Assembly (NCBI GenBank): GCA_965248445.1
Contig: CBDFJG010000004.1
Coordinates: 1,216,001-1,280,000, forward strand
Reading direction: 5' to 3'
Length of the DNA: 64,000 nucleotides
From: Planctomycetota bacterium
GTDB lineage: Bacteria > Planctomycetota > JAJSAM01 > JAJVHW01
Shown here: positions 6,565-48,504 of the stretch, one piece after another
Layout of the letters: every line of letters begins with the position of its first letter
How positions within the stretch are numbered: the stretch's first letter is position 1
Program-made: the position numbers and the translations under genes
Notes under the pieces: model-generated
What the model was told of the DNA's origin: nothing
Seen by the model: the letters and a program-made list of their open reading frames with translations, nothing else
The model's database searches: none

Positions 6565-8121
6565 ATGAGGACTTCCCGCGCACCTGTTTCAATCGACACG
6601 CTTCTCACGCACCGCGCGTGGGTGCAGCGGCTGGCGCGATCGCTCGTGCACGATCAGGCGTCCGCGGACGACCTGGAACAGAAGGCGTGGCTGGCCGCCT
6701 TGCGCCGTCCTCCGACTCACCAGCCAACCGCCCGGGCATGGCTCGGCCGGGTCGTGCGAAACCTCGCGCGGGATGCGAACCGGTCCGGCGCACGGCGCAC
6801 TCGCCATGAGAGCCTCGCGGCGCGGGCGACTGAGGTCCGCACCACGCCGGAGATCGTGGCCGAAGCGGAGTCGCACCGTCTGGTCGTCCTTGCCGTCCAC
6901 GGACTCGACGAGCCCTATCGCACCGCGGTCTTGCTGCGCTGGTTCGAGAACTTGCCGCCGCGGGAGATCGCCTCACGAACGGGAGTGCCGGCGGAGACGG
7001 TCCGCACGCGGCTCCGCCGCGCACACGGAAGGCTGCGGCAGCGGCTGCAGTCGGACGGTCCGCGCTCGCGCGACTGGGTAGCAGCGCTGGCACCGCTGAT
7101 GGGTCCCGGTTCCGAGTCTGCACCCACATGGATCACGACAGTCACCGCCAAGACCGCGGCGAGCATCGGAGGCGTAGCCATGGGAACGAAGACAGCACTT
7201 GGAGTGGCAGCGGTCGTGATCGTCGGCGCGGCCTTCGTCGGGGGGCGTATCACGGGCGACTCCGACACAGAGTCAGCGCCAGACGAGGCGGCAGCCGAGA
7301 TCGCGGCTCTGCGGAACCGCATCGATCAGCTCGAGCGGGACGAACGACGTCGTGTCGAAACGCACCGGACGCGCACTCCGCGAACGGAGTCAGCGCCCGC
7401 AGCCGACACGCCTGGGATCGCGCCGGACGATCCGCGTCTCGTGGCGCTGGAGAACGCGCTGGACACGATGAAGCAGCAACTCGACGACGCAGAGGCCGCC
7501 AGAGCGGCGCAGAGCGGCACCGGCGCCGCTGCGGCTTCCCGGATGACCCAGCAGGAGCGCGAGGCCCTGCGGGCACTGACCGACGACGAGTTGCTCGGGG
7601 AGCTGCGCAAGCTCGTGTCCTCCGGATCGCGCGGCAAGCAGCTCGACGGCGGTCGAATCGTCGAAATGAGCGAGCTGCTGCTCGGGCGTCCGCTCGACAG
7701 CGGCAGACACTCCGAGACCCTGCGCCAAAAGGGGATCGGTCACCGCGTCCTCGGAGAAGACGAGAACGAGCTGACCGCGTTCCGCGAGGCGGCACGCATC
7801 GCCGGGGCCGGCACTCACGACGCGCGCATGGCCGAGACGCAGCTAGCTTGGTCCGCCGGGAGGCACGGCGATCTGCACGGTGCCGCGCAGGCGTTCCTGC
7901 TCCTGGCCGAAGACACCGACGCCCCCCCGCGCCAGCGCGCGTGGAATCGCTACTACGCCGGATCTCACTTCGAACGGTCTCGCGAGGCCGATCGCGCCAT
8001 CGACGAGTACCGCGTGGTCGTCAACGAGTTCGAGGACGACGACGACCCGAGCGTCGCCATGGCCGTGGGAAGGGCTCGCAAGAGCCTTGAGCGCCTCTCG
8101 AAGTCATCCTCGAGTCGCTGA
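6565..8121 (+). CDS. ECF RNA polymerase sigma factor with TM segment, coiled coil and TPR-like C-terminal extension
   Basis: Region 2 'ADDLEQKAWL..AWLGRVVRNL'; region 4 'LPPREIA...ETVRTRLRRA'; hydrophobic 'ALGVAAVVIVGAAFVGG'. Confidence 0.85.
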   Translation: MRTSRAPVSIDTLLTHRAWVQRLARSLVHDQASADDLEQKAWLAALRRPPTHQPTARAWLGRVVRNLARDANRSGARRTRHESLAARATEVRTTPEIVAEAESHRLVVLAVHGLDEPYRTAVLLRWFENLPPREIASRTGVPAETVRTRLRRAHGRLRQRLQSDGPRSRDWVAALAPLMGPGSESAPTWITTVTAKTAASIGGVAMGTKTALGVAAVVIVGAAFVGGRITGDSDTESAPDEAAAEIAALRNRIDQLERDERRRVETHRTRTPRTESAPAADTPGIAPDDPRLVALENALDTMKQQLDDAEAARAAQSGTGAAAASRMTQQEREALRALTDDELLGELRKLVSSGSRGKQLDGGRIVEMSELLLGRPLDSGRHSETLRQKGIGHRVLGEDENELTAFREAARIAGAGTHDARMAETQLAWSAGRHGDLHGAAQAFLLLAEDTDAPPRQRAWNRYYAGSHFERSREADRAIDEYRVVVNEFEDDDDPSVAMAVGRARKSLERLSKSSSSR

Positions 8122-11096: not shown

Positions 11097-11322
11097 TGGG
11101 CGCGGCGACTGGATTCGAACCGAGCGAAGCGAGGACGCCGAGGTGCGCGACCGAGCAGTCACGCGCTGGTGACTCTCGAACGCCGCGCACCGAAGGACAA
11201 CCGGCGACCATCTGGCGCCCGGGGGCTCGATGCCCCCGGGCCCGGAGGGTCGCGAGGCTCGAATCCAGTCGCCCCGGTCGTGGCCACCTGGTGGGGCACG
11301 CCCGTTCCCCCTCGGGCTGCAA
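11097..11322 (-). repeat. tRNA-linked element: antisense arm, conserved core and duplicated tRNA-Pro 3' end
   Basis: Inverted tRNA-Pro 3' copy 11259-11276 (18 bp exact); direct degenerate copy 11097-11121 (23/25); motifs shared with the element at 48134-48335. Confidence 0.75.
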
Positions 11323-11368
11323 TGGTCGGGGCGACTGGATTCGAACCAGCGACCTCATCCACCCCAAG
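11320..11368 (-). repeat. Displaced 3' half of tRNA-Pro (att site direct repeat)
   Basis: 49 bp identical to 15568-15616; identity starts at the anticodon loop. Confidence 0.92.
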
Positions 11369-11699
11369 CTCAGGCTAGGCTTGCGGCCCGCTGCGAATGT
11401 AAGTCGTTGCGTCGCATTCGGATGCGACACGTTGCACCAGATTGTACTCCGCACGGGTAGTGCTACCCATCTCGGGTCAACCGCTCCGGTCGTCCGAACT
11501 GCACGAGCGCTCGTTCCCGTCGGAGGACCTGCCGAGGGTCGGACTCTGCAACGCGACCCCGCTTCACACACGGTGTCCCGCGCGATCCGGGCGCGGTGCG
11601 CTCACGATTGCGCACGGGCAATGCGCCCCGGGCTCTCGCTACTCTCCCTCTGGCCGCGCAGACCGCGCGGCGGGAGCGTGGGGGAGGAGTGATGCGGAT

Positions 11700-12791
11700 A
11701 GGGGCTCCCCCCTTCGCTCAGGTTGAGCGCCCGATCGGGTGACTAACATCGCACTTACAAGGAGGTGTGATGACCGGTGCCATGATCCCCTTTGCGCGCG
11801 ACGACTCGCTGCCGGGCACACTCGCCGAGTTTGTCGTGAGGTTCTCCGACGAAGATCGGTGTGCAGCCCTGCTGCGCCGGTGGAAGTACGGCGAGGGCGG
11901 CTTCCGCTGTCCAGCGTGCGGCGGCGAGGAGGCGTGGTTCCTGCCGTCACGCCGGCTCGACGAGTGTTGTGCCTGCCACAAGCAGGTTTCGCTCACCGCC
12001 GGCACCGTCATGCACGGGTCTCGCAAGCCGCTACGGCTGTGGTTCCTGGCCATGTATCTGTTCGTGTCGAGCAAGCGAGGCATCTCCGCACTCGAGCTGC
12101 AGCGCGAGCTTGGACTGGCCAAGTACCAGACCGCTTGGACATGGCTGCACAAGTTGCGAAACGCCATCGCGATGCGATCCACCGCGCCGCTGCGCGGACA
12201 CCTCGAGATCGACGAGACCTGGGAAGGCGGACTGCGACATGGCCGGCCGGGGCGTCCCAAGGTCGGCGACCGCAGCGCGCTGGTCATGGGAGCCGTCGAG
12301 ATCTCACCGCGTCACGCCCTCATCGGTCGCATCCGTCTCGAATCCATCGCCGATGGTTCGGCTGACACGGTCAAGGCGTTCCTCGAGCAGCACGTCGCCG
12401 CACGCTCAGTGCTGTTCACCGACGACTGGCGTAGCTATCGAAAGCCGGCTGACGACTTGGAGCACGACCATCGACCGACCAACGTGTCGAAGTCCGACGA
12501 CGAGGCACACGTTGTGCTACCTGCGATCCACCGCGTCTTCTCGCTGCTCCATCGCGTGCTCTTGGGCACGTTCCAGGGCGGCGTGCGACGCAAGTACCTC
12601 CCCAGCTACCTGGCGGAGTTCGAGTTCCGGTTCAACCGACGCACATCGAAGCGACGTGGACTGCTGTTCCAACGACTACTCGCCTGCGCCGTGCGGCGAT
12701 GCCCTCCCTTCCACTGGGAGATCGTTGGGCGAACCGATGCGCGCACGCCACTCGCCGCCGCAGCCTGACCTGAGTGAAGAGGGGATCCCCT
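11700..12791 (+). mobile_element. IS1595-family insertion sequence, 1092 bp
   Basis: 24-bp terminal inverted repeats (11700-11723 and 12768-12791, 3 mismatches); 8-bp target duplication ATGCGGAT at 11692-11699 and 12792-12799. Confidence 0.93.
11767..12768 (+). CDS. IS1595-family DDE transposase
   Basis: Zn ribbon CPAC/CCAC; 'SSKRGISALELQRELG'; 'EIDET', 'FTDDW.SY', 'YLAEFEFRFNRR'. Confidence 0.95.
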   Translation: MMTGAMIPFARDDSLPGTLAEFVVRFSDEDRCAALLRRWKYGEGGFRCPACGGEEAWFLPSRRLDECCACHKQVSLTAGTVMHGSRKPLRLWFLAMYLFVSSKRGISALELQRELGLAKYQTAWTWLHKLRNAIAMRSTAPLRGHLEIDETWEGGLRHGRPGRPKVGDRSALVMGAVEISPRHALIGRIRLESIADGSADTVKAFLEQHVAARSVLFTDDWRSYRKPADDLEHDHRPTNVSKSDDEAHVVLPAIHRVFSLLHRVLLGTFQGGVRRKYLPSYLAEFEFRFNRRTSKRRGLLFQRLLACAVRRCPPFHWEIVGRTDARTPLAAAA

Positions 12792-15329
12792 ATGCGGATT
12801 TCTCGGAAGAGTTCCTTCGTCGCGACGGCGGCGACCGTCCTCCTGTGCGCGAGCGTGGCCGGCGGCGTCGGCACAATCGTCACGACGTGCGCGGTCATCG
12901 ACGCGGGCACCGCCACCAACCAGGGCATCGTCACGATCGACGAGTGCGCCCCGCCGGCCACGCCCCCGCCAAAGCCCTCGCTGGGCGTCCTGACGACGCA
13001 GGGCGCGATCGATGGCCCGCTCCCGGCCAAACCGAGCACCGGTGACGGTTCGCTCGGCGCGGTGTCTCTCGCCAGCTCGCAGACGCTCCCGGGCGGCACG
13101 TACAACTACACCGACTTAGACATCACCGGCGGCGCGACGATCTCCTACTCCGGACCGGTGACGATCCTCGCCACCGGCTCGGTGAACGTCGCGGGCATCA
13201 TCGACATGAACGTCGCGGGCGACCTCGCCATCGTCGCCGGCGACGAGATCAAGATCCTCAGCATGGACGGAGCGCCGGTCACCGGCGTGTTCCACTTCTC
13301 GGTCGGAAACGTGCGGCTCGAGGCGGACCGCGTCGAGATCGGGGTGGAACTGGTCGCACCCGTCACAAGTGCCACTCCGAACGTCGCGGAGGTCCGCAGC
13401 AACCAAGGAGACACGGTCATCCGGTCGCACGGTTCCGACCCGGGCAACCACGCCATCGACATTGCGGACTCGTCCATCAACGTCGCGGACGGCGGCAACA
13501 TCCTGATGCAGTCCTCGACGCGCATCGACGTGTTCACGTCGCTGATCGACACGAGCTTCGGCTCGGTGACGGTCCAGGCGTTCGGTGACGACGTGCGGTA
13601 CTCCGGCTCCGAGAGCTACTCCCGGGACGGGGACACGATCGTCGAGTCCTCGAACGACGTCACGCTGCAGAACGCGACGATCGTCGAGGCCATCCACGGG
13701 GAACTGCGGATCGAGGCTTTCGACGGGGACGTCACCTTCGACGAGGCGGCGGCGTCGGCCGACGACGGCGTGGCGGTCGGGAACGGGAGCGGAACGGGCA
13801 GCATCATCGTCGCCGCCGCGGAGTTCGTGGACCTCAACAACGACTCGTTCATCACATCGGACGGCACGGGCGGTGTCCGCGTGACCGCCCACGGCGGCGA
13901 TGTCGTGCTCGAACGGAGCGGCTCCACGGGACAGTCGTACATCGAGTGCGTGCGGAGGGGCGACGTGCTGGTCGAGGCGTCCGAGAACGTGCGCCTCTAC
14001 GGATCCAGCTACTTGCGGACGCCACGGGACATCAGGGCGGTCGCCTTCGGCGGCGAGGTGCTGCTCCAGGGCCAGCCGTTCATCGACGGGAGCGAGGTCC
14101 TGGTGGGTGCGTCGAACGCGATCGTCGCCCAACAGGACGGTCCGCCGCCCTTGATTCGGGGAGCAGGGGTCGATCTCGTCGCGGGCTCCGGCGGGATCAA
14201 CCTGCAGGCGAGCGTCATGGCGGACGACGGCGACTTCGACCTCAGCATGATCTGCGACGGCGACATCTTCCTGGAGGGATCGGCGGAGGGCAGCGGCGGA
14301 GCCAGTGTCTCGCTGACTTCGGTGGACGGCGACATCCTGGTCATCGACGCGATGGTGACGACGCTCAGCGGAGTGGGGGCACGGTCCGGCAGCGTCCGGC
14401 TCAGGAGCTTCGGCGGCAGCGGGGCACTGATCGACGCGACCAACGCCACCATCACATCCGGCGACGCGTCGTTCAGCAGCGGCGACGTGTCGCTGCTGAT
14501 CCACGGAGGCGGGACGATCCAGTCGTTCGTGCTGCCCAAGACTGTCAAGGTCAAGATCAACGAGAACAGGCCGGAGAAGTCGAAGGTCAACGCAGCCGGT
14601 TTCTTCGACACGGGCCCGGCTCTCGCTTCGCTCGCAGGACCTGCCACCGTCAAGGTCGGCGACCTCGAGTACACCGCGAACCTCGAGCCCAGCAAGAACG
14701 GCAAGAGCTTTCTGTTCAAGTCGGGCGGTGCGCGGCTGCAGATCAAGCCGAACCGCTCCGGCAGTTCCCGCGCGAAGTTCAAGCTGACGATCACCGACGA
14801 CCTCATGGGCGACGTCCCCGACGAGGGCAACATCACGCTCGAGTTCGAGACGGCATCGGCCAACGGGATGGGCACCGTGGAACTCGAGCGCGGCAAGTAC
14901 AAGCTCGGCAAGCGCCGCGGCCTGCTCAGCGAACCGAACGTCTTCCCGTTCAAGGTGAAGCAAGTGCACAAGGGCGACGGCAAGGACGTGCTGTCGATCC
15001 TGGCGGGCCTCGCCACCGGGGGCGGCACGCCCGACAACGCACCGGACGTGACGATCTCGCTCGGCGGCGTCTTCCAGGCGACCGTCCCGGGTGACGAGTT
15101 CACGCGGAAGGGCGACGTCTATATCGCGAAGCACCCGCCGTCGGCACCCGGCGTCTCGAAGCTGCAGATCAACTTCCTGAGGGAGCAGGTCAGTCTGAAG
15201 GCCAAGGGACTGACGCTCGGAGCGCGGCCGGACGAGGGCCCGTACAACATCGAAGTCACCGTGGACAACGAGACCCGCGGCGTCGACATCCGCATGTCGC
15301 CCTCGAACGCCCGCACCATCAAGTACTGA
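12792..15329 (+). CDS. Large secreted/surface protein: acidic beta-solenoid-like region plus Lys-rich C-terminal domain
   Basis: Signal-peptide-like N-terminus; repeated 'GDV.(I/V).A..D(V/I).L' units; strong GC3 bias; original RBS GGAGGAG lies left of the IS. Confidence 0.8.
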   Translation: MRISRKSSFVATAATVLLCASVAGGVGTIVTTCAVIDAGTATNQGIVTIDECAPPATPPPKPSLGVLTTQGAIDGPLPAKPSTGDGSLGAVSLASSQTLPGGTYNYTDLDITGGATISYSGPVTILATGSVNVAGIIDMNVAGDLAIVAGDEIKILSMDGAPVTGVFHFSVGNVRLEADRVEIGVELVAPVTSATPNVAEVRSNQGDTVIRSHGSDPGNHAIDIADSSINVADGGNILMQSSTRIDVFTSLIDTSFGSVTVQAFGDDVRYSGSESYSRDGDTIVESSNDVTLQNATIVEAIHGELRIEAFDGDVTFDEAAASADDGVAVGNGSGTGSIIVAAAEFVDLNNDSFITSDGTGGVRVTAHGGDVVLERSGSTGQSYIECVRRGDVLVEASENVRLYGSSYLRTPRDIRAVAFGGEVLLQGQPFIDGSEVLVGASNAIVAQQDGPPPLIRGAGVDLVAGSGGINLQASVMADDGDFDLSMICDGDIFLEGSAEGSGGASVSLTSVDGDILVIDAMVTTLSGVGARSGSVRLRSFGGSGALIDATNATITSGDASFSSGDVSLLIHGGGTIQSFVLPKTVKVKINENRPEKSKVNAAGFFDTGPALASLAGPATVKVGDLEYTANLEPSKNGKSFLFKSGGARLQIKPNRSGSSRAKFKLTITDDLMGDVPDEGNITLEFETASANGMGTVELERGKYKLGKRRGLLSEPNVFPFKVKQVHKGDGKDVLSILAGLATGGGTPDNAPDVTISLGGVFQATVPGDEFTRKGDVYIAKHPPSAPGVSKLQINFLREQVSLKAKGLTLGARPDEGPYNIEVTVDNETRGVDIRMSPSNARTIKY

Positions 15330-15570
15330 CCGCGGGCGTCGAGGCCCTCGATCCGCACACGGGCAATCCGCCCGGGGCTCCCGCTGTCCTCCCACCGTGC
15401 CTCGCGGTCGGGCGCTGTGATGACCTTCGGTCGGAGGTGGAAGCCGACATCTGCGATCGTCACTCCGCTGTCGCGCTCGCCGAGAGCATGAGGTCGAGGC
15501 CTGGGCGAAGGAGTGCCTCGGTGACGTGCGTTCCGCGGAGACAGCGGGTAGCCGCCGTACGAGTTGTCAA

Positions 15571-15648
15571 TGGTCGGGGCGACTGGATTCGAACCAGCGA
15601 CCTCATCCACCCCAAGGATGCGCGCTATCCAGGCTGCGCCACGCCCCG
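15571..15648 (-). tRNA. tRNA-Pro (GGG)
   Basis: CGGGGCG/CGCCCCG acceptor stem, CATCC-TTGGGGT-GGATG anticodon arm, GGTTCGAATCC T arm, encoded CCA. Confidence 0.97.
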
Positions 15649-46743: not shown

Positions 46744-47979
46744 ATGCAGGCGACGACACGCGGCGGGACCGACATCGGTCGGCGCCGCGAGCACAATGAG
46801 GACACGTTCCTCGTCGACGACGACATCGCGCTCGCGATTGTCGCCGACGGCATGGGCGGCCACGCGTGCGGCGAGGTCGCCTCGGAGCTCGCCGCTGAGG
46901 CCTTCCGCGACGCGGTGACAGGCGAGCGCGAGACCCTCTCGAAGTACGCCGCCGGAGGCGCATCGTCGGACGAGGTGCACGCGGTGCTCGAGAGCGCGAT
47001 GCTGATGGCGTGCAACACGGTCTACGAGGCCGCGGAGGACGATCCCTCCAAGCACGGGATGGGAACTACGTGCACGGCGGTGGTATTGGCGGGCGACCGG
47101 CTGTTCGCCGCGCACGTCGGCGACTCGCGGTTGTACTTGGTGCGCGACGACCAGGCGCTCCAGCTGACTCGAGATCACACCGTCCTGGCCCAGTTGGTGG
47201 CGCTCGGCCGCATCACCGCGGAGCAGGCCGCGGGCAGCGGTTACGCGGGGTATCGCAACGCGCTCGCCCGTGCAGTCGGCGTCACGCCCGAGGTCGAGGT
47301 CGACACGCTGTCGGTCGATGTGCTGCCGGGCGACGTCCTGCTGCTCGCCTCCGACGGTTTGACGACGTACTGCAAGCCCGCCGAGATCGCGGATCTCGCC
47401 GGTGGTAGCAAGGGCGACCTCGCAGAGAGACTGATCGCCGTCGCAAACGAGCGTGGCGGTCACGACAACATCACTGTCGTCACCGTTCACATGGCCGGCG
47501 ACGAATCGGACAACCTGCGCGCCGAGGTGCTCGCGTCGAAACTCGCCGCGCTGCGTCGCGTTCCGATGTTCGCGCTCCTCGAGCCGGAGAGGCTTCTCGA
47601 AGTGAGTGCACTCGCCGAGATCGTGGCGGTACCCAAGGATACGTACGTCGTCCGCAAGGGCGAGGCCGGCGACGCGCTCTACGCCGTGCTCGAGGGCACG
47701 GCGTGTGTGGCGTCCGAGGACGAAGAGGATCGCGAGCTGAGCGCCGGTGAGTTCTTCGGCGAATTCACTCTGCTCGACGTGCGCCGGCGAGCGACGGACG
47801 TCGTGACGACGGAGCCCTGCCGACTGCTGCGGCTCGACCGCGCCTCTCTGGCAGTGTTCCTCGAACGCTCTCCGCAGGTGGGCGTGCAACTGCTGTGGTC
47901 GCTCGCGCGATTCGTCTCCGGGCACGCGGGTTCAGGCGCCACAGAGGACGATGCGGACACGGCGGAGGACTCAGCGTAG
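46744..47979 (+). CDS. PP2C-type Ser/Thr phosphatase with C-terminal cNMP-binding domain
   Basis: 'NED', 'ADGMGGH', 'HVGDSR', 'SDGL', 'GGHDNIT'; then 'FFGE..LL..RRAT'. Confidence 0.88.
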   Translation: MQATTRGGTDIGRRREHNEDTFLVDDDIALAIVADGMGGHACGEVASELAAEAFRDAVTGERETLSKYAAGGASSDEVHAVLESAMLMACNTVYEAAEDDPSKHGMGTTCTAVVLAGDRLFAAHVGDSRLYLVRDDQALQLTRDHTVLAQLVALGRITAEQAAGSGYAGYRNALARAVGVTPEVEVDTLSVDVLPGDVLLLASDGLTTYCKPAEIADLAGGSKGDLAERLIAVANERGGHDNITVVTVHMAGDESDNLRAEVLASKLAALRRVPMFALLEPERLLEVSALAEIVAVPKDTYVVRKGEAGDALYAVLEGTACVASEDEEDRELSAGEFFGEFTLLDVRRRATDVVTTEPCRLLRLDRASLAVFLERSPQVGVQLLWSLARFVSGHAGSGATEDDADTAEDSA

Positions 47980-48005
47980 ACGGCCGACGGCGGCTCCGGC
48001 AACGC

Positions 48006-48035
48006 TTGACGGCGCTCCGGGGGGGTGGGTACAAG
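48006..48035 (+). promoter_or_regulatory. Candidate sigma70 promoter for tRNA-Met
   Basis: TTGACG-N18-TACAAG ending about 22 bp upstream of the tRNA. Confidence 0.45.
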
Positions 48036-48057
48036 CCGCGGTTCCGACGACTCCGGT

Positions 48058-48133
48058 GGCGGCGTAGCTCAGGGGTTAGAGCGGCGGATTCATAACCCGC
48101 AGGTCGCTGGTTCAATTCCAGCCGCCGCTACCA
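48058..48133 (+). tRNA. tRNA with CAT anticodon, most likely elongator tRNA-Met
   Basis: GGCGGCG/CGCCGCT acceptor stem (paired 1:72, so not an initiator), TTCATAA loop, GGTTCAATTCC T arm, CCA; Ile2 not fully excluded. Confidence 0.92.
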
Positions 48134-48335
48134 CGAGTCGCTCGGGACGCTCGCTCCTCCACCGCGAGAGCCACCTGGCGGCTGGAATCTCCCAGCGCCC
48201 TACGGCACGCCGGCTATGCCGGCGCACCTGGTCGCGGGTTGCCTTCGACGGCTACGCCGCCTCGGCCACGTCGCTGCGCTCCGTTCAATCAAGCCGCCGC
48301 TACCACGAGTCGCTCGGGACGCTCGCTCCTCCACC
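48120..48335 (+). repeat. tRNA-linked element with 44-bp direct repeats and an antisense arm
   Basis: 48120-48163 is identical to 48292-48335; 48177-48188 is the exact reverse complement of tRNA 48115-48126. Confidence 0.85.
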
Positions 48336-48504
48336 ACCACCTTCGTCCGGCGGAATCGGACAGCGTCTCCCGCAGGGGAGTAGAGCAGCGCGGATCGGAC
48401 ACCCCCGCGGCGCCCGGGCGGGGAGCGTTCCGTCGTCAAGGACGCGCGACGGTTGCCCGCGGTTACATCACGTCCGAGAGCGGCCGCGGACGTACGCTGC
48501 GCCG

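Follow-up and report, generated by a model that had tools for sequence, protein, structure and literature searches.

A putative rtT-type tRNA-operon repeat behind a planctomycete tRNA-Met gene, recognised by its build rather than its sequence

The trailer of a tRNA-Met(CAU) gene in a Planctomycetota genome appears to be a tRNA-operon repeat of the rtT type, recognised by its build and not by its sequence. The host genome (labelled G000; 5.4 Mb, 69% G+C, 4 contigs) contains the window considered here, a stretch of 64,000 nucleotides at C4:1216001-1280000, to which all coordinates without a contig label refer. The gene, which encodes its own CCA, lies on the plus strand at 48058-48133 and was found both by ARAGORN and with the Rfam model RF00005 (67.1 bits); the anticodon CAU is that of Met or of Ile2.

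The locus behind this gene is a succession of tRNA-derived pieces, all on the plus strand. The first copy of a direct repeat (48117-48163; repeat search and BLAST) comprises the end of the T-loop, the 3' strands of the T-stem and the acceptor stem, the CCA and 30 nt of trailer. A spacer of 43 nt, the initial 30 nt of which recur after the second tRNA-end copy, separates the tRNA from an antisense arm (48177-48205), the reverse complement of tRNA-Met positions 69 to 40, which occupies offsets 44-72 of the unit. The initial 12 nt of the arm are exact and its T-loop letters are altered. Next comes a G+C hairpin of 7 pairs with a 3-nt loop (48208-48224; sequence and folds), which in a gapped alignment takes the place of the anticodon arm of an inverted tRNA copy. 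It is followed by a short direct copy of tRNA-Met positions 45-55 (48230-48240; variable region, 5' strand of the T-stem and two T-loop bases), identical at 10 of 11 positions and, on its own, not significant (score 17 versus 15.2 +/- 2.2). The core of a repeat family (48232-48283; nhmmer matches of model R1 and folds of 11 units) then sits where the T-loop would continue, and consists of an outer 3-pair stem round a short hairpin with a 3-nt loop and of a conserved C/T/G-rich tail. The unit is completed by a second direct copy of the tRNA end, from T-loop to CCA (48284-48305), and by a second copy of the 30-nt trailer (48306-48335).

The two copies of the direct repeat, 48117-48163 and 48289-48335, are 98% identical over 47 nt at a spacing of 172 in the repeat search. 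A preliminary description of this DNA had reported an exact 44-bp repeat with a 172-bp period, and BLAST recovered precisely this (44 nt exact, spacing 172). The repeat is truly longer, as copy 2 retains most of the T-loop from 48284 onwards, with one indel. A decayed, older copy of the T-stem, acceptor stem, CCA and start of the trailer is found directly upstream of the tRNA (48032-48053, plus strand), with 73-77% identity to 48118-48139 and 48290-48311 at spacings of 86 and 172 (repeat search).

The preliminary description had also recognised a 3' antisense arm, a 7-mer complementary to the tRNA (48234-48240) and a complement of the first 11 nt of the tRNA (48251-48261), and these were confirmed. 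The arm is co-linear with the tRNA and scores 29 against 15.0 +/- 1.8 for shuffles, its first part forming an exact inverted repeat with the gene (48115-48126 and 48177-48188; 12 nt, 100%). The 7-mer is the reverse complement of tRNA bases 48094-48100, and the 11-mer is the exact inverse of 48058-48068 (11 nt, 100%). The latter overlaps the core hairpin, which is similar in other family members, so that part of this match is a family feature and not specific to tRNA-Met. When the whole interior (48134-48280) was aligned locally in antisense with its own tRNA, the score was 29, as compared with a mean of 15.2 for 300 shuffles (sd 2.2, max 23), and the own tRNA-Met ranked first as antisense match among 56 ARAGORN calls, several of which are plainly false, lacking CCA and lying inside coding sequence. 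A further ARAGORN call in the window, a tRNA-Ala(UGC) at 8032-8109, has neither Rfam support nor CCA and is probably false. In a gapped alignment, the minus-strand reading of 48170-48270 matches the whole tRNA at 57 of 76 columns (score 53 versus 20.5 +/- 4.4, max 36). This co-linear antisense alignment is consistent with the origin that had been offered as an alternative in the preliminary description, namely an inverted copy of the tRNA. The minus strand was also considered as a working tRNA and rejected, since Rfam gave no tRNA match there at E <= 10.

Repeats of 178 bp behind tyrT and tyrV of Escherichia coli have a similar period and likewise a copy of the tRNA end, and the K-12 locus was therefore compared. 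The rtT element (RttR sRNA; Rfam RF00391, RtT) has been known since 1991, and the original paper is reportedly that of Bosl and Kersten (1991). At tyrT of K-12 the period is 178 nt, and each unit includes 22 nt with 86% complementarity to the acceptor/T-arm of tRNA-Tyr and with changed T-loop letters (score 29 versus 14.3 +/- 2.5). The unit runs from antisense positions 77 to 56 at once into a direct copy of positions 54-70, then through hairpins, and closes with the final 19 nt of the tRNA, CCA included. The partner of the arm in the Rfam RtT consensus is this terminal copy of the tRNA end and not the tRNA, and the CCA tail is single-stranded. In passages of several accounts, rtT is described as an RNA that is released from the tyrT transcript in the course of tRNA processing and is loosely tied to the stringent response, its mode of action being called unknown (PMC4986893; PMC3318445; 10.1101/2024.07.17.603846).

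The planctomycete unit resembles rtT in most aspects of this build. Both immediately follow a tRNA gene of the same strand, with periods of 178 nt in E. coli and 172 nt at tRNA-Met, and the units of both end in the 3' end of their own tRNA with CCA. Thus 48284-48305 repeats the T-loop to CCA of the upstream tRNA-Met on the same strand, and the counterpart behind tRNA-Pro (11097-11121) likewise repeats that of its tRNA with 3 mismatches. In both systems an antisense copy of the acceptor/T-arm with altered T-loop letters is followed by a direct copy of the 5' strand of the T-stem and the start of the T-loop, then by hairpins, and then by the remaining T-loop to CCA. Nevertheless, there is no match in sequence or to the covariance model. 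With the RtT model (RF00391), neither 47950-48450 nor any of six family loci had a match at E <= 10, and three genomes (G000 and the relatives G005 and G007) had none at E <= 1. The gathering threshold of the model, 45 bits, is not reached here, whereas E. coli K-12 gives 133-138 bits with it and is the only one of 14 control genomes in which it has matches. At E <= 10, Rfam otherwise returned just chance-level matches to unrelated families in this region and the six family loci. We therefore speak of a likeness of build and not of membership in the family. There are other differences: the E. coli locus has three and a fraction units and the tRNA-Met locus one full unit; 30 nt of trailer are part of the repeat at tRNA-Met; the host is a Planctomycetota MAG and not a gammaproteobacterium; and E. 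coli rtT is known as a released RNA, whereas the Met unit is known from DNA alone.

A sister element on the minus strand of the same window (11097-11319; BLAST, profile matches, fold and alignments) repeats this build at a second tRNA. It follows 49 nt that duplicate the 3' part of tRNA-Pro(GGG) exactly (11320-11368, minus strand; 49/49 identity by BLAST to 15568-15616), while the intact gene lies at 15571-15648 on the minus strand, so that a 4.2-kb insertion (11369-15567) must separate the gene from the copy. This insertion carries an open reading frame (ORF) for an IS1595-type transposase (11767-12768), and Pfam identified no integrase among its tested ORFs. The antisense arm of the sister element (11248-11276) is found at offset 44-72, as in the Met unit, and corresponds to tRNA-Pro positions 74 to 47, 18 nt being exact (score 41 versus 16.5 +/- 2.6). 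A G+C hairpin, positions 47-57 copied in direct orientation, the core (11120-11207) and the terminal tRNA-end copy (11097-11121) follow in the same order. The Met and Pro elements can be aligned over their whole length with 129 identical columns (score 79 versus 14.7 +/- 8.8, max 39.5), a value to which the likeness of the two tRNAs contributes. The common core, the equal offsets and this alignment bear out the kinship with 11097-11368 that had been noted earlier.

The minimum free energy (MFE) structure of the sister element reaches -123.8 kcal/mol (z -6.9; 0 of 200 shuffles as good) and is closed by a helix of 18 pairs between the arm and the downstream tRNA-end copy (17/18), which encloses three inner hairpins and leaves a 7-nt single-stranded tail ending in CCA. 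This is the fold of the RtT consensus, with pairing of arm and copy and a free CCA tail. In the Met unit the corresponding closing helix has 9 of 10 pairs and is present in the centroid, not in the MFE structure; the fold of the unit is no better than those of shuffles (z -1.3), and the energy of the arm-to-copy duplex (z -0.8) is ordinary for the G+C content, in a test that has limited power at 69% G+C. Compared with the sister element, the tRNA-Met unit is more worn.

The preliminary description had suggested that the precursor could fold into a long duplex of tRNA and trailer, and such a duplex is indeed preferred in silico. The MFE structure of 48058-48305 (-119.8 kcal/mol; z -3.1, 1 of 200 shuffles as good) pairs 46 tRNA bases outside the tRNA, the 3' half of the tRNA being paired with the arm. 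Separate folds of tRNA and trailer reach -104.9 kcal/mol, which is 14.9 kcal/mol less favourable, in a nearest-neighbour model that ignores co-transcriptional folding and the tertiary structure of the tRNA. The locus could then be a regulatory misfolding switch, in which the antisense arm would pair with the 3' half of the nascent tRNA and slow or block its maturation, the downstream copy serving as an anti-arm; the three mutually exclusive pairing partners do form an attenuator-like layout. We nonetheless regard such a switch as very unlikely. The tRNA is made, and is able to fold, before the arm exists, and the arrangement is kept at none of the 19 loci of relatives. Moreover, the arm of the sister element is fully kept (18/18) although the intact tRNA-Pro lies 4.2 kb away, and it pairs at 17 of 18 positions with its own downstream tRNA-end copy, as the arm does in the Rfam consensus of the E. 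coli analogue. The lack of conservation in relatives and the preserved sister arm with its distant tRNA lead us to rate the duplex as a side effect of the inverted copy and not as a selected switch. What stands of the earlier suggestion is the computed preference; the missing insert in relatives speaks against a conserved regulatory duplex.

The core of the Met unit belongs to a small family in this genome. A profile built from alignment A2 (model R1) returned 26 nhmmer rows at E <= 10. Each of the eight rows at E <= 0.12 has a tRNA gene or a displaced tRNA 3' fragment no more than about 360 nt upstream, as compared with 0 of the 18 weaker rows. These eight loci belong to tRNA-Arg(CCT), tRNA-Met (48058), tRNA-Val(CAC) together with a partial copy on another contig, tRNA-Pro(GGG) and a second tRNA(CAU) with two units. 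Shorter elements behind tRNA-Ser(GGA) and tRNA-Leu(UAA) have only the last part and a 22-nt tRNA-end copy in common with the family. According to folds of 11 units, the core is a hairpin of 4-6 pairs with a 3-nt loop inside an outer 3-pair stem, and its inner stem has at least six different sequences among these units, all of which pair. This suggests that some constraint, at the RNA or the DNA level, maintains the hairpin. These stems were taken from single-sequence folds; RNAalifold missed the core hairpin on the MAFFT alignment A2 because the stems were misaligned. The antisense arm is less widespread: it is significant in two of eight own-genome elements tested (Met and Pro), weak in the Val element, and was not detected by alignment against shuffles in the Arg, second CAU tRNA, Leu and Ser elements. 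BLAST of the 125-nt insert against its own genome found only the insert itself.

At C1:35150-35900, two family elements and a partial core in inverted orientation lie behind a displaced 3' part of tRNA-Val(CAC), while the intact tRNA-Val(CAC), with its own element, is on a different contig (C2:554399-554473); this split arrangement suggests a rearrangement or the loss of a second gene copy. The trailers of tRNA-Tyr (C2:297229) and tRNA-Leu(CAA) (C3:324471) have another short hairpin-plus-tail motif in common, and that of tRNA-Tyr also has the tail motif of the core. The repeat family may therefore be wider than the profile indicates.

A core shared by elements at Arg, Met, Val, Pro and second CAU tRNAs could be expected of a non-autonomous mobile repeat of the REP/MITE type, the hairpin core of which would insert into T-loop-like targets and leave the tRNA-like flanks as target duplications. 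The core is, like REP and BIME sequences, a short imperfect palindrome with an internal loop and a variable stem, extragenic and downstream of genes, and its compensatory stem variation is of the kind seen in palindromes recognised by proteins. Part of the literature on enterobacteria moreover reports rtT-like sequences as components of BIMEs (PMC2965389). In the relative G007, a related G+C-rich repeat of about 105 nt with the tail motif of the core (C105:1-1000 and C331:2300-2900) is found once behind tRNA-Gln, flanked by 85-nt direct repeats of a 19-pair trailer hairpin, and twice away from tRNAs behind a coding gene, one of these two copies lying between 19-nt repeats. However, the own genome holds merely about 11 units in 5.4 Mb, all beside tRNAs, as compared with hundreds for REP/BIME elements, and a staggered cut of fixed length would not give flanking repeats that range from 19 to 85 nt. 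A search for a partner transposase was negative: the only Y1_Tnp-like gene (25.5 bits) has no copy of the repeat in its flanks, and no association of the eight significant core matches with a RAYT gene was found. Simple insertion would also leave the locus-specific antisense arms unexplained. We thus judge a mobile repeat to be a quite improbable explanation of the locus. It concerns origin, as does integration, discussed below, and neither is fully exclusive of an rtT-type unit.

In the genomes searched, the insert is nearly absent outside its own genome. Among 41 genomes, matches to the query extend past position 110 only in G000 itself and, partially, in G005. The insert is absent at the tRNA-Met loci of all 19 relatives, including three syntenic ones (G007, G003 and G002), in which the same downstream HAD-hydrolase gene lies 45-180 nt from the tRNA versus about 380 nt here. 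The complementarity is thus not kept in relatives, which the preliminary description would have expected of its duplex, and there is no argument from conservation for a function at the tRNA-Met locus. A search of 151 Planctomycetota genomes with model R1, run with stricter filters, gave matches at E < 1e-4 only in G000 (7 places), G005 (1) and G006 (1); the last lies inside an apparent coding sequence and was rejected as a relative. G005, which belongs to another genus, therefore holds the sole true relative in the phylum search. There the orthologue of the second tRNA(CAU) has a displaced 3' part, behind which the unit lies; the unit has the same inner-stem letters as our unit behind that tRNA and, by eye, has an antisense arm as well. 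Pattern scans were otherwise negative: of 21 loci on genome contigs only that of G005 is a true relative, the other 20 being coding or unrelated; at least 117 loci on metagenome contigs have a tRNA context in none of those listed, one of them lying near a tRNA-Asp but without the element; and all 19 loci on viral contigs are due to chance. ARAGORN found no tRNA at locus L022 of genome G015, and blastn against phages gave no match. Contigs from the source sample break at the repeats and offer no joint that bypasses the insert; three other sequencing runs contain just the tRNA and a short stretch upstream of it, and none of the runs listed as containing the locus is an RNA run.

A direct repeat from T-loop to CCA is also what an integrated element would leave. 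An element with a tyrosine integrase might have entered the T-loop of tRNA-Met, restored the gene, displaced its old 3' end to 48284-48335 and later been gutted to 125 nt. According to parts of two studies, integrases that use the T-loop sublocation classically leave displaced fragments beginning in the T-loop as their footprint (10.1101/2020.11.02.365908; PMC4383910). The host genome is rich in tRNA 3' copies and harbours real islands, among them the 4.2-kb insertion at tRNA-Pro, and relatives contain many copies of the 3' half of tRNA-Arg. Still, copies that bracket the insert are present at tRNA-Met but no integrase-coding or once-coding DNA lies between them. The 125-nt interior is non-coding, shows no trace of a recombinase and, unlike the contents of Islander-type islands, consists of tRNA-derived inverted and direct pieces and the core. 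Nor does the repeat stop at the tRNA: it extends at least 30 nt into the host trailer, which is also present in a relative. E. coli rtT and a second tRNA of this genome have the same geometry, and the core is on no phage or viral contig in the collections scanned. Finally, at all three sites with larger insertions (tRNA-Pro, the tRNA-Val fragment on C1, and G005) the small element is on the host side of the displaced fragment and not inside the island. All these observations make an integration scar an unlikely origin for the unit.

We favour, with moderate confidence, the reading that the tRNA-Met trailer is a unit built like rtT, which likely arose by a local inverted-plus-direct duplication of the 3' part of the tRNA and which, if read-through occurs, would be set free as a by-product RNA by the enzymes that process tRNAs. 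Genes for tRNAs are built of short inverted repeats. Replication could have switched template (snapped back) at such palindromes of the tRNA itself, and we propose this origin because a sense-antisense-sense order of one short segment is the product of template switching at short inverted repeats, as parts of one study describe (PMC4689423). In the same study, inverted triplications, or tandem inversion duplications, have this order and have junctions near short palindromes (PMC4689423); they are of kilobase scale and under selection, whereas the pieces here are shorter than 100 nt and heavily remodelled, and a shared mechanism would be conjectural. It should be noted that near-palindromes lie just 5' of both arms (48171-48183 and 11284-11296) and read like a collapsed tRNA 3' end that abuts its own reverse complement; a snap-back junction at the CCA end would fit them. 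Roth and colleagues are said to have worked on tandem inversion duplication (TID) in bacteria.

As for its expression, the unit would be co-transcribed with the tRNA; no consensus terminator was found between tRNA-Met and the arm, in a scan that is weak for such a genome. With read-through, a tRNA-like 3' end would lie on either side of the unit. Its arm could then pair with the downstream copy of the tRNA end to give a helix that resembles an acceptor/T-arm and leaves the CCA tail free, as the RtT consensus of Rfam does, and the RNA may thereby become a substrate for tRNA end-processing, with release of the unit as is the case for rtT. Several results argue against this proposal: the RtT model has no match, the Met unit folds no better than shuffles, a significant arm is limited to two of the eight own-genome elements, and the global MFE structure favours pairing of the arm with the tRNA over pairing with the copy.

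The same order of parts is thus found in a distant phylum, with unrelated sequence, at two tRNAs and at identical offsets; the origin and role of rtT are still called unknown in part of the literature (PMC3318445). It is tempting, if quite a long shot, to suggest a recurrent class of rtT-type by-product RNAs of tRNA operons, made of inverted and direct copies of tRNA 3' halves, which would be uncharged mimics of the acceptor/T-arm with a CCA tail and would have evolved independently, or been kept, in Planctomycetes. If this were true, mimics processed by tRNA enzymes could feed into the sensing of uncharged tRNA. A testable rule is gained in any case, namely to find rtT-type elements by build instead of sequence, and one may ask whether they are produced by a replication error common to tRNA genes or by a use that they share. 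There is also a practical warning: a short repeat of the tRNA end downstream of its gene need not be an integration scar.

Other tRNA 3' copies were encountered along the way. The last 30 nt of tRNA-Pro(CGG) recur with 97-100% identity at six further sites of the host genome (C4:90175, C4:1286135, C4:1978704, C4:288090, C3:295347 and C2:855259). The 3' half of tRNA-Arg(CCT), from anticodon loop to CCA, is present in many copies of 96-100% identity in G005, G006, G007 and G001, with at least eight in G005, which points to a prolific family of integrative elements using that site.
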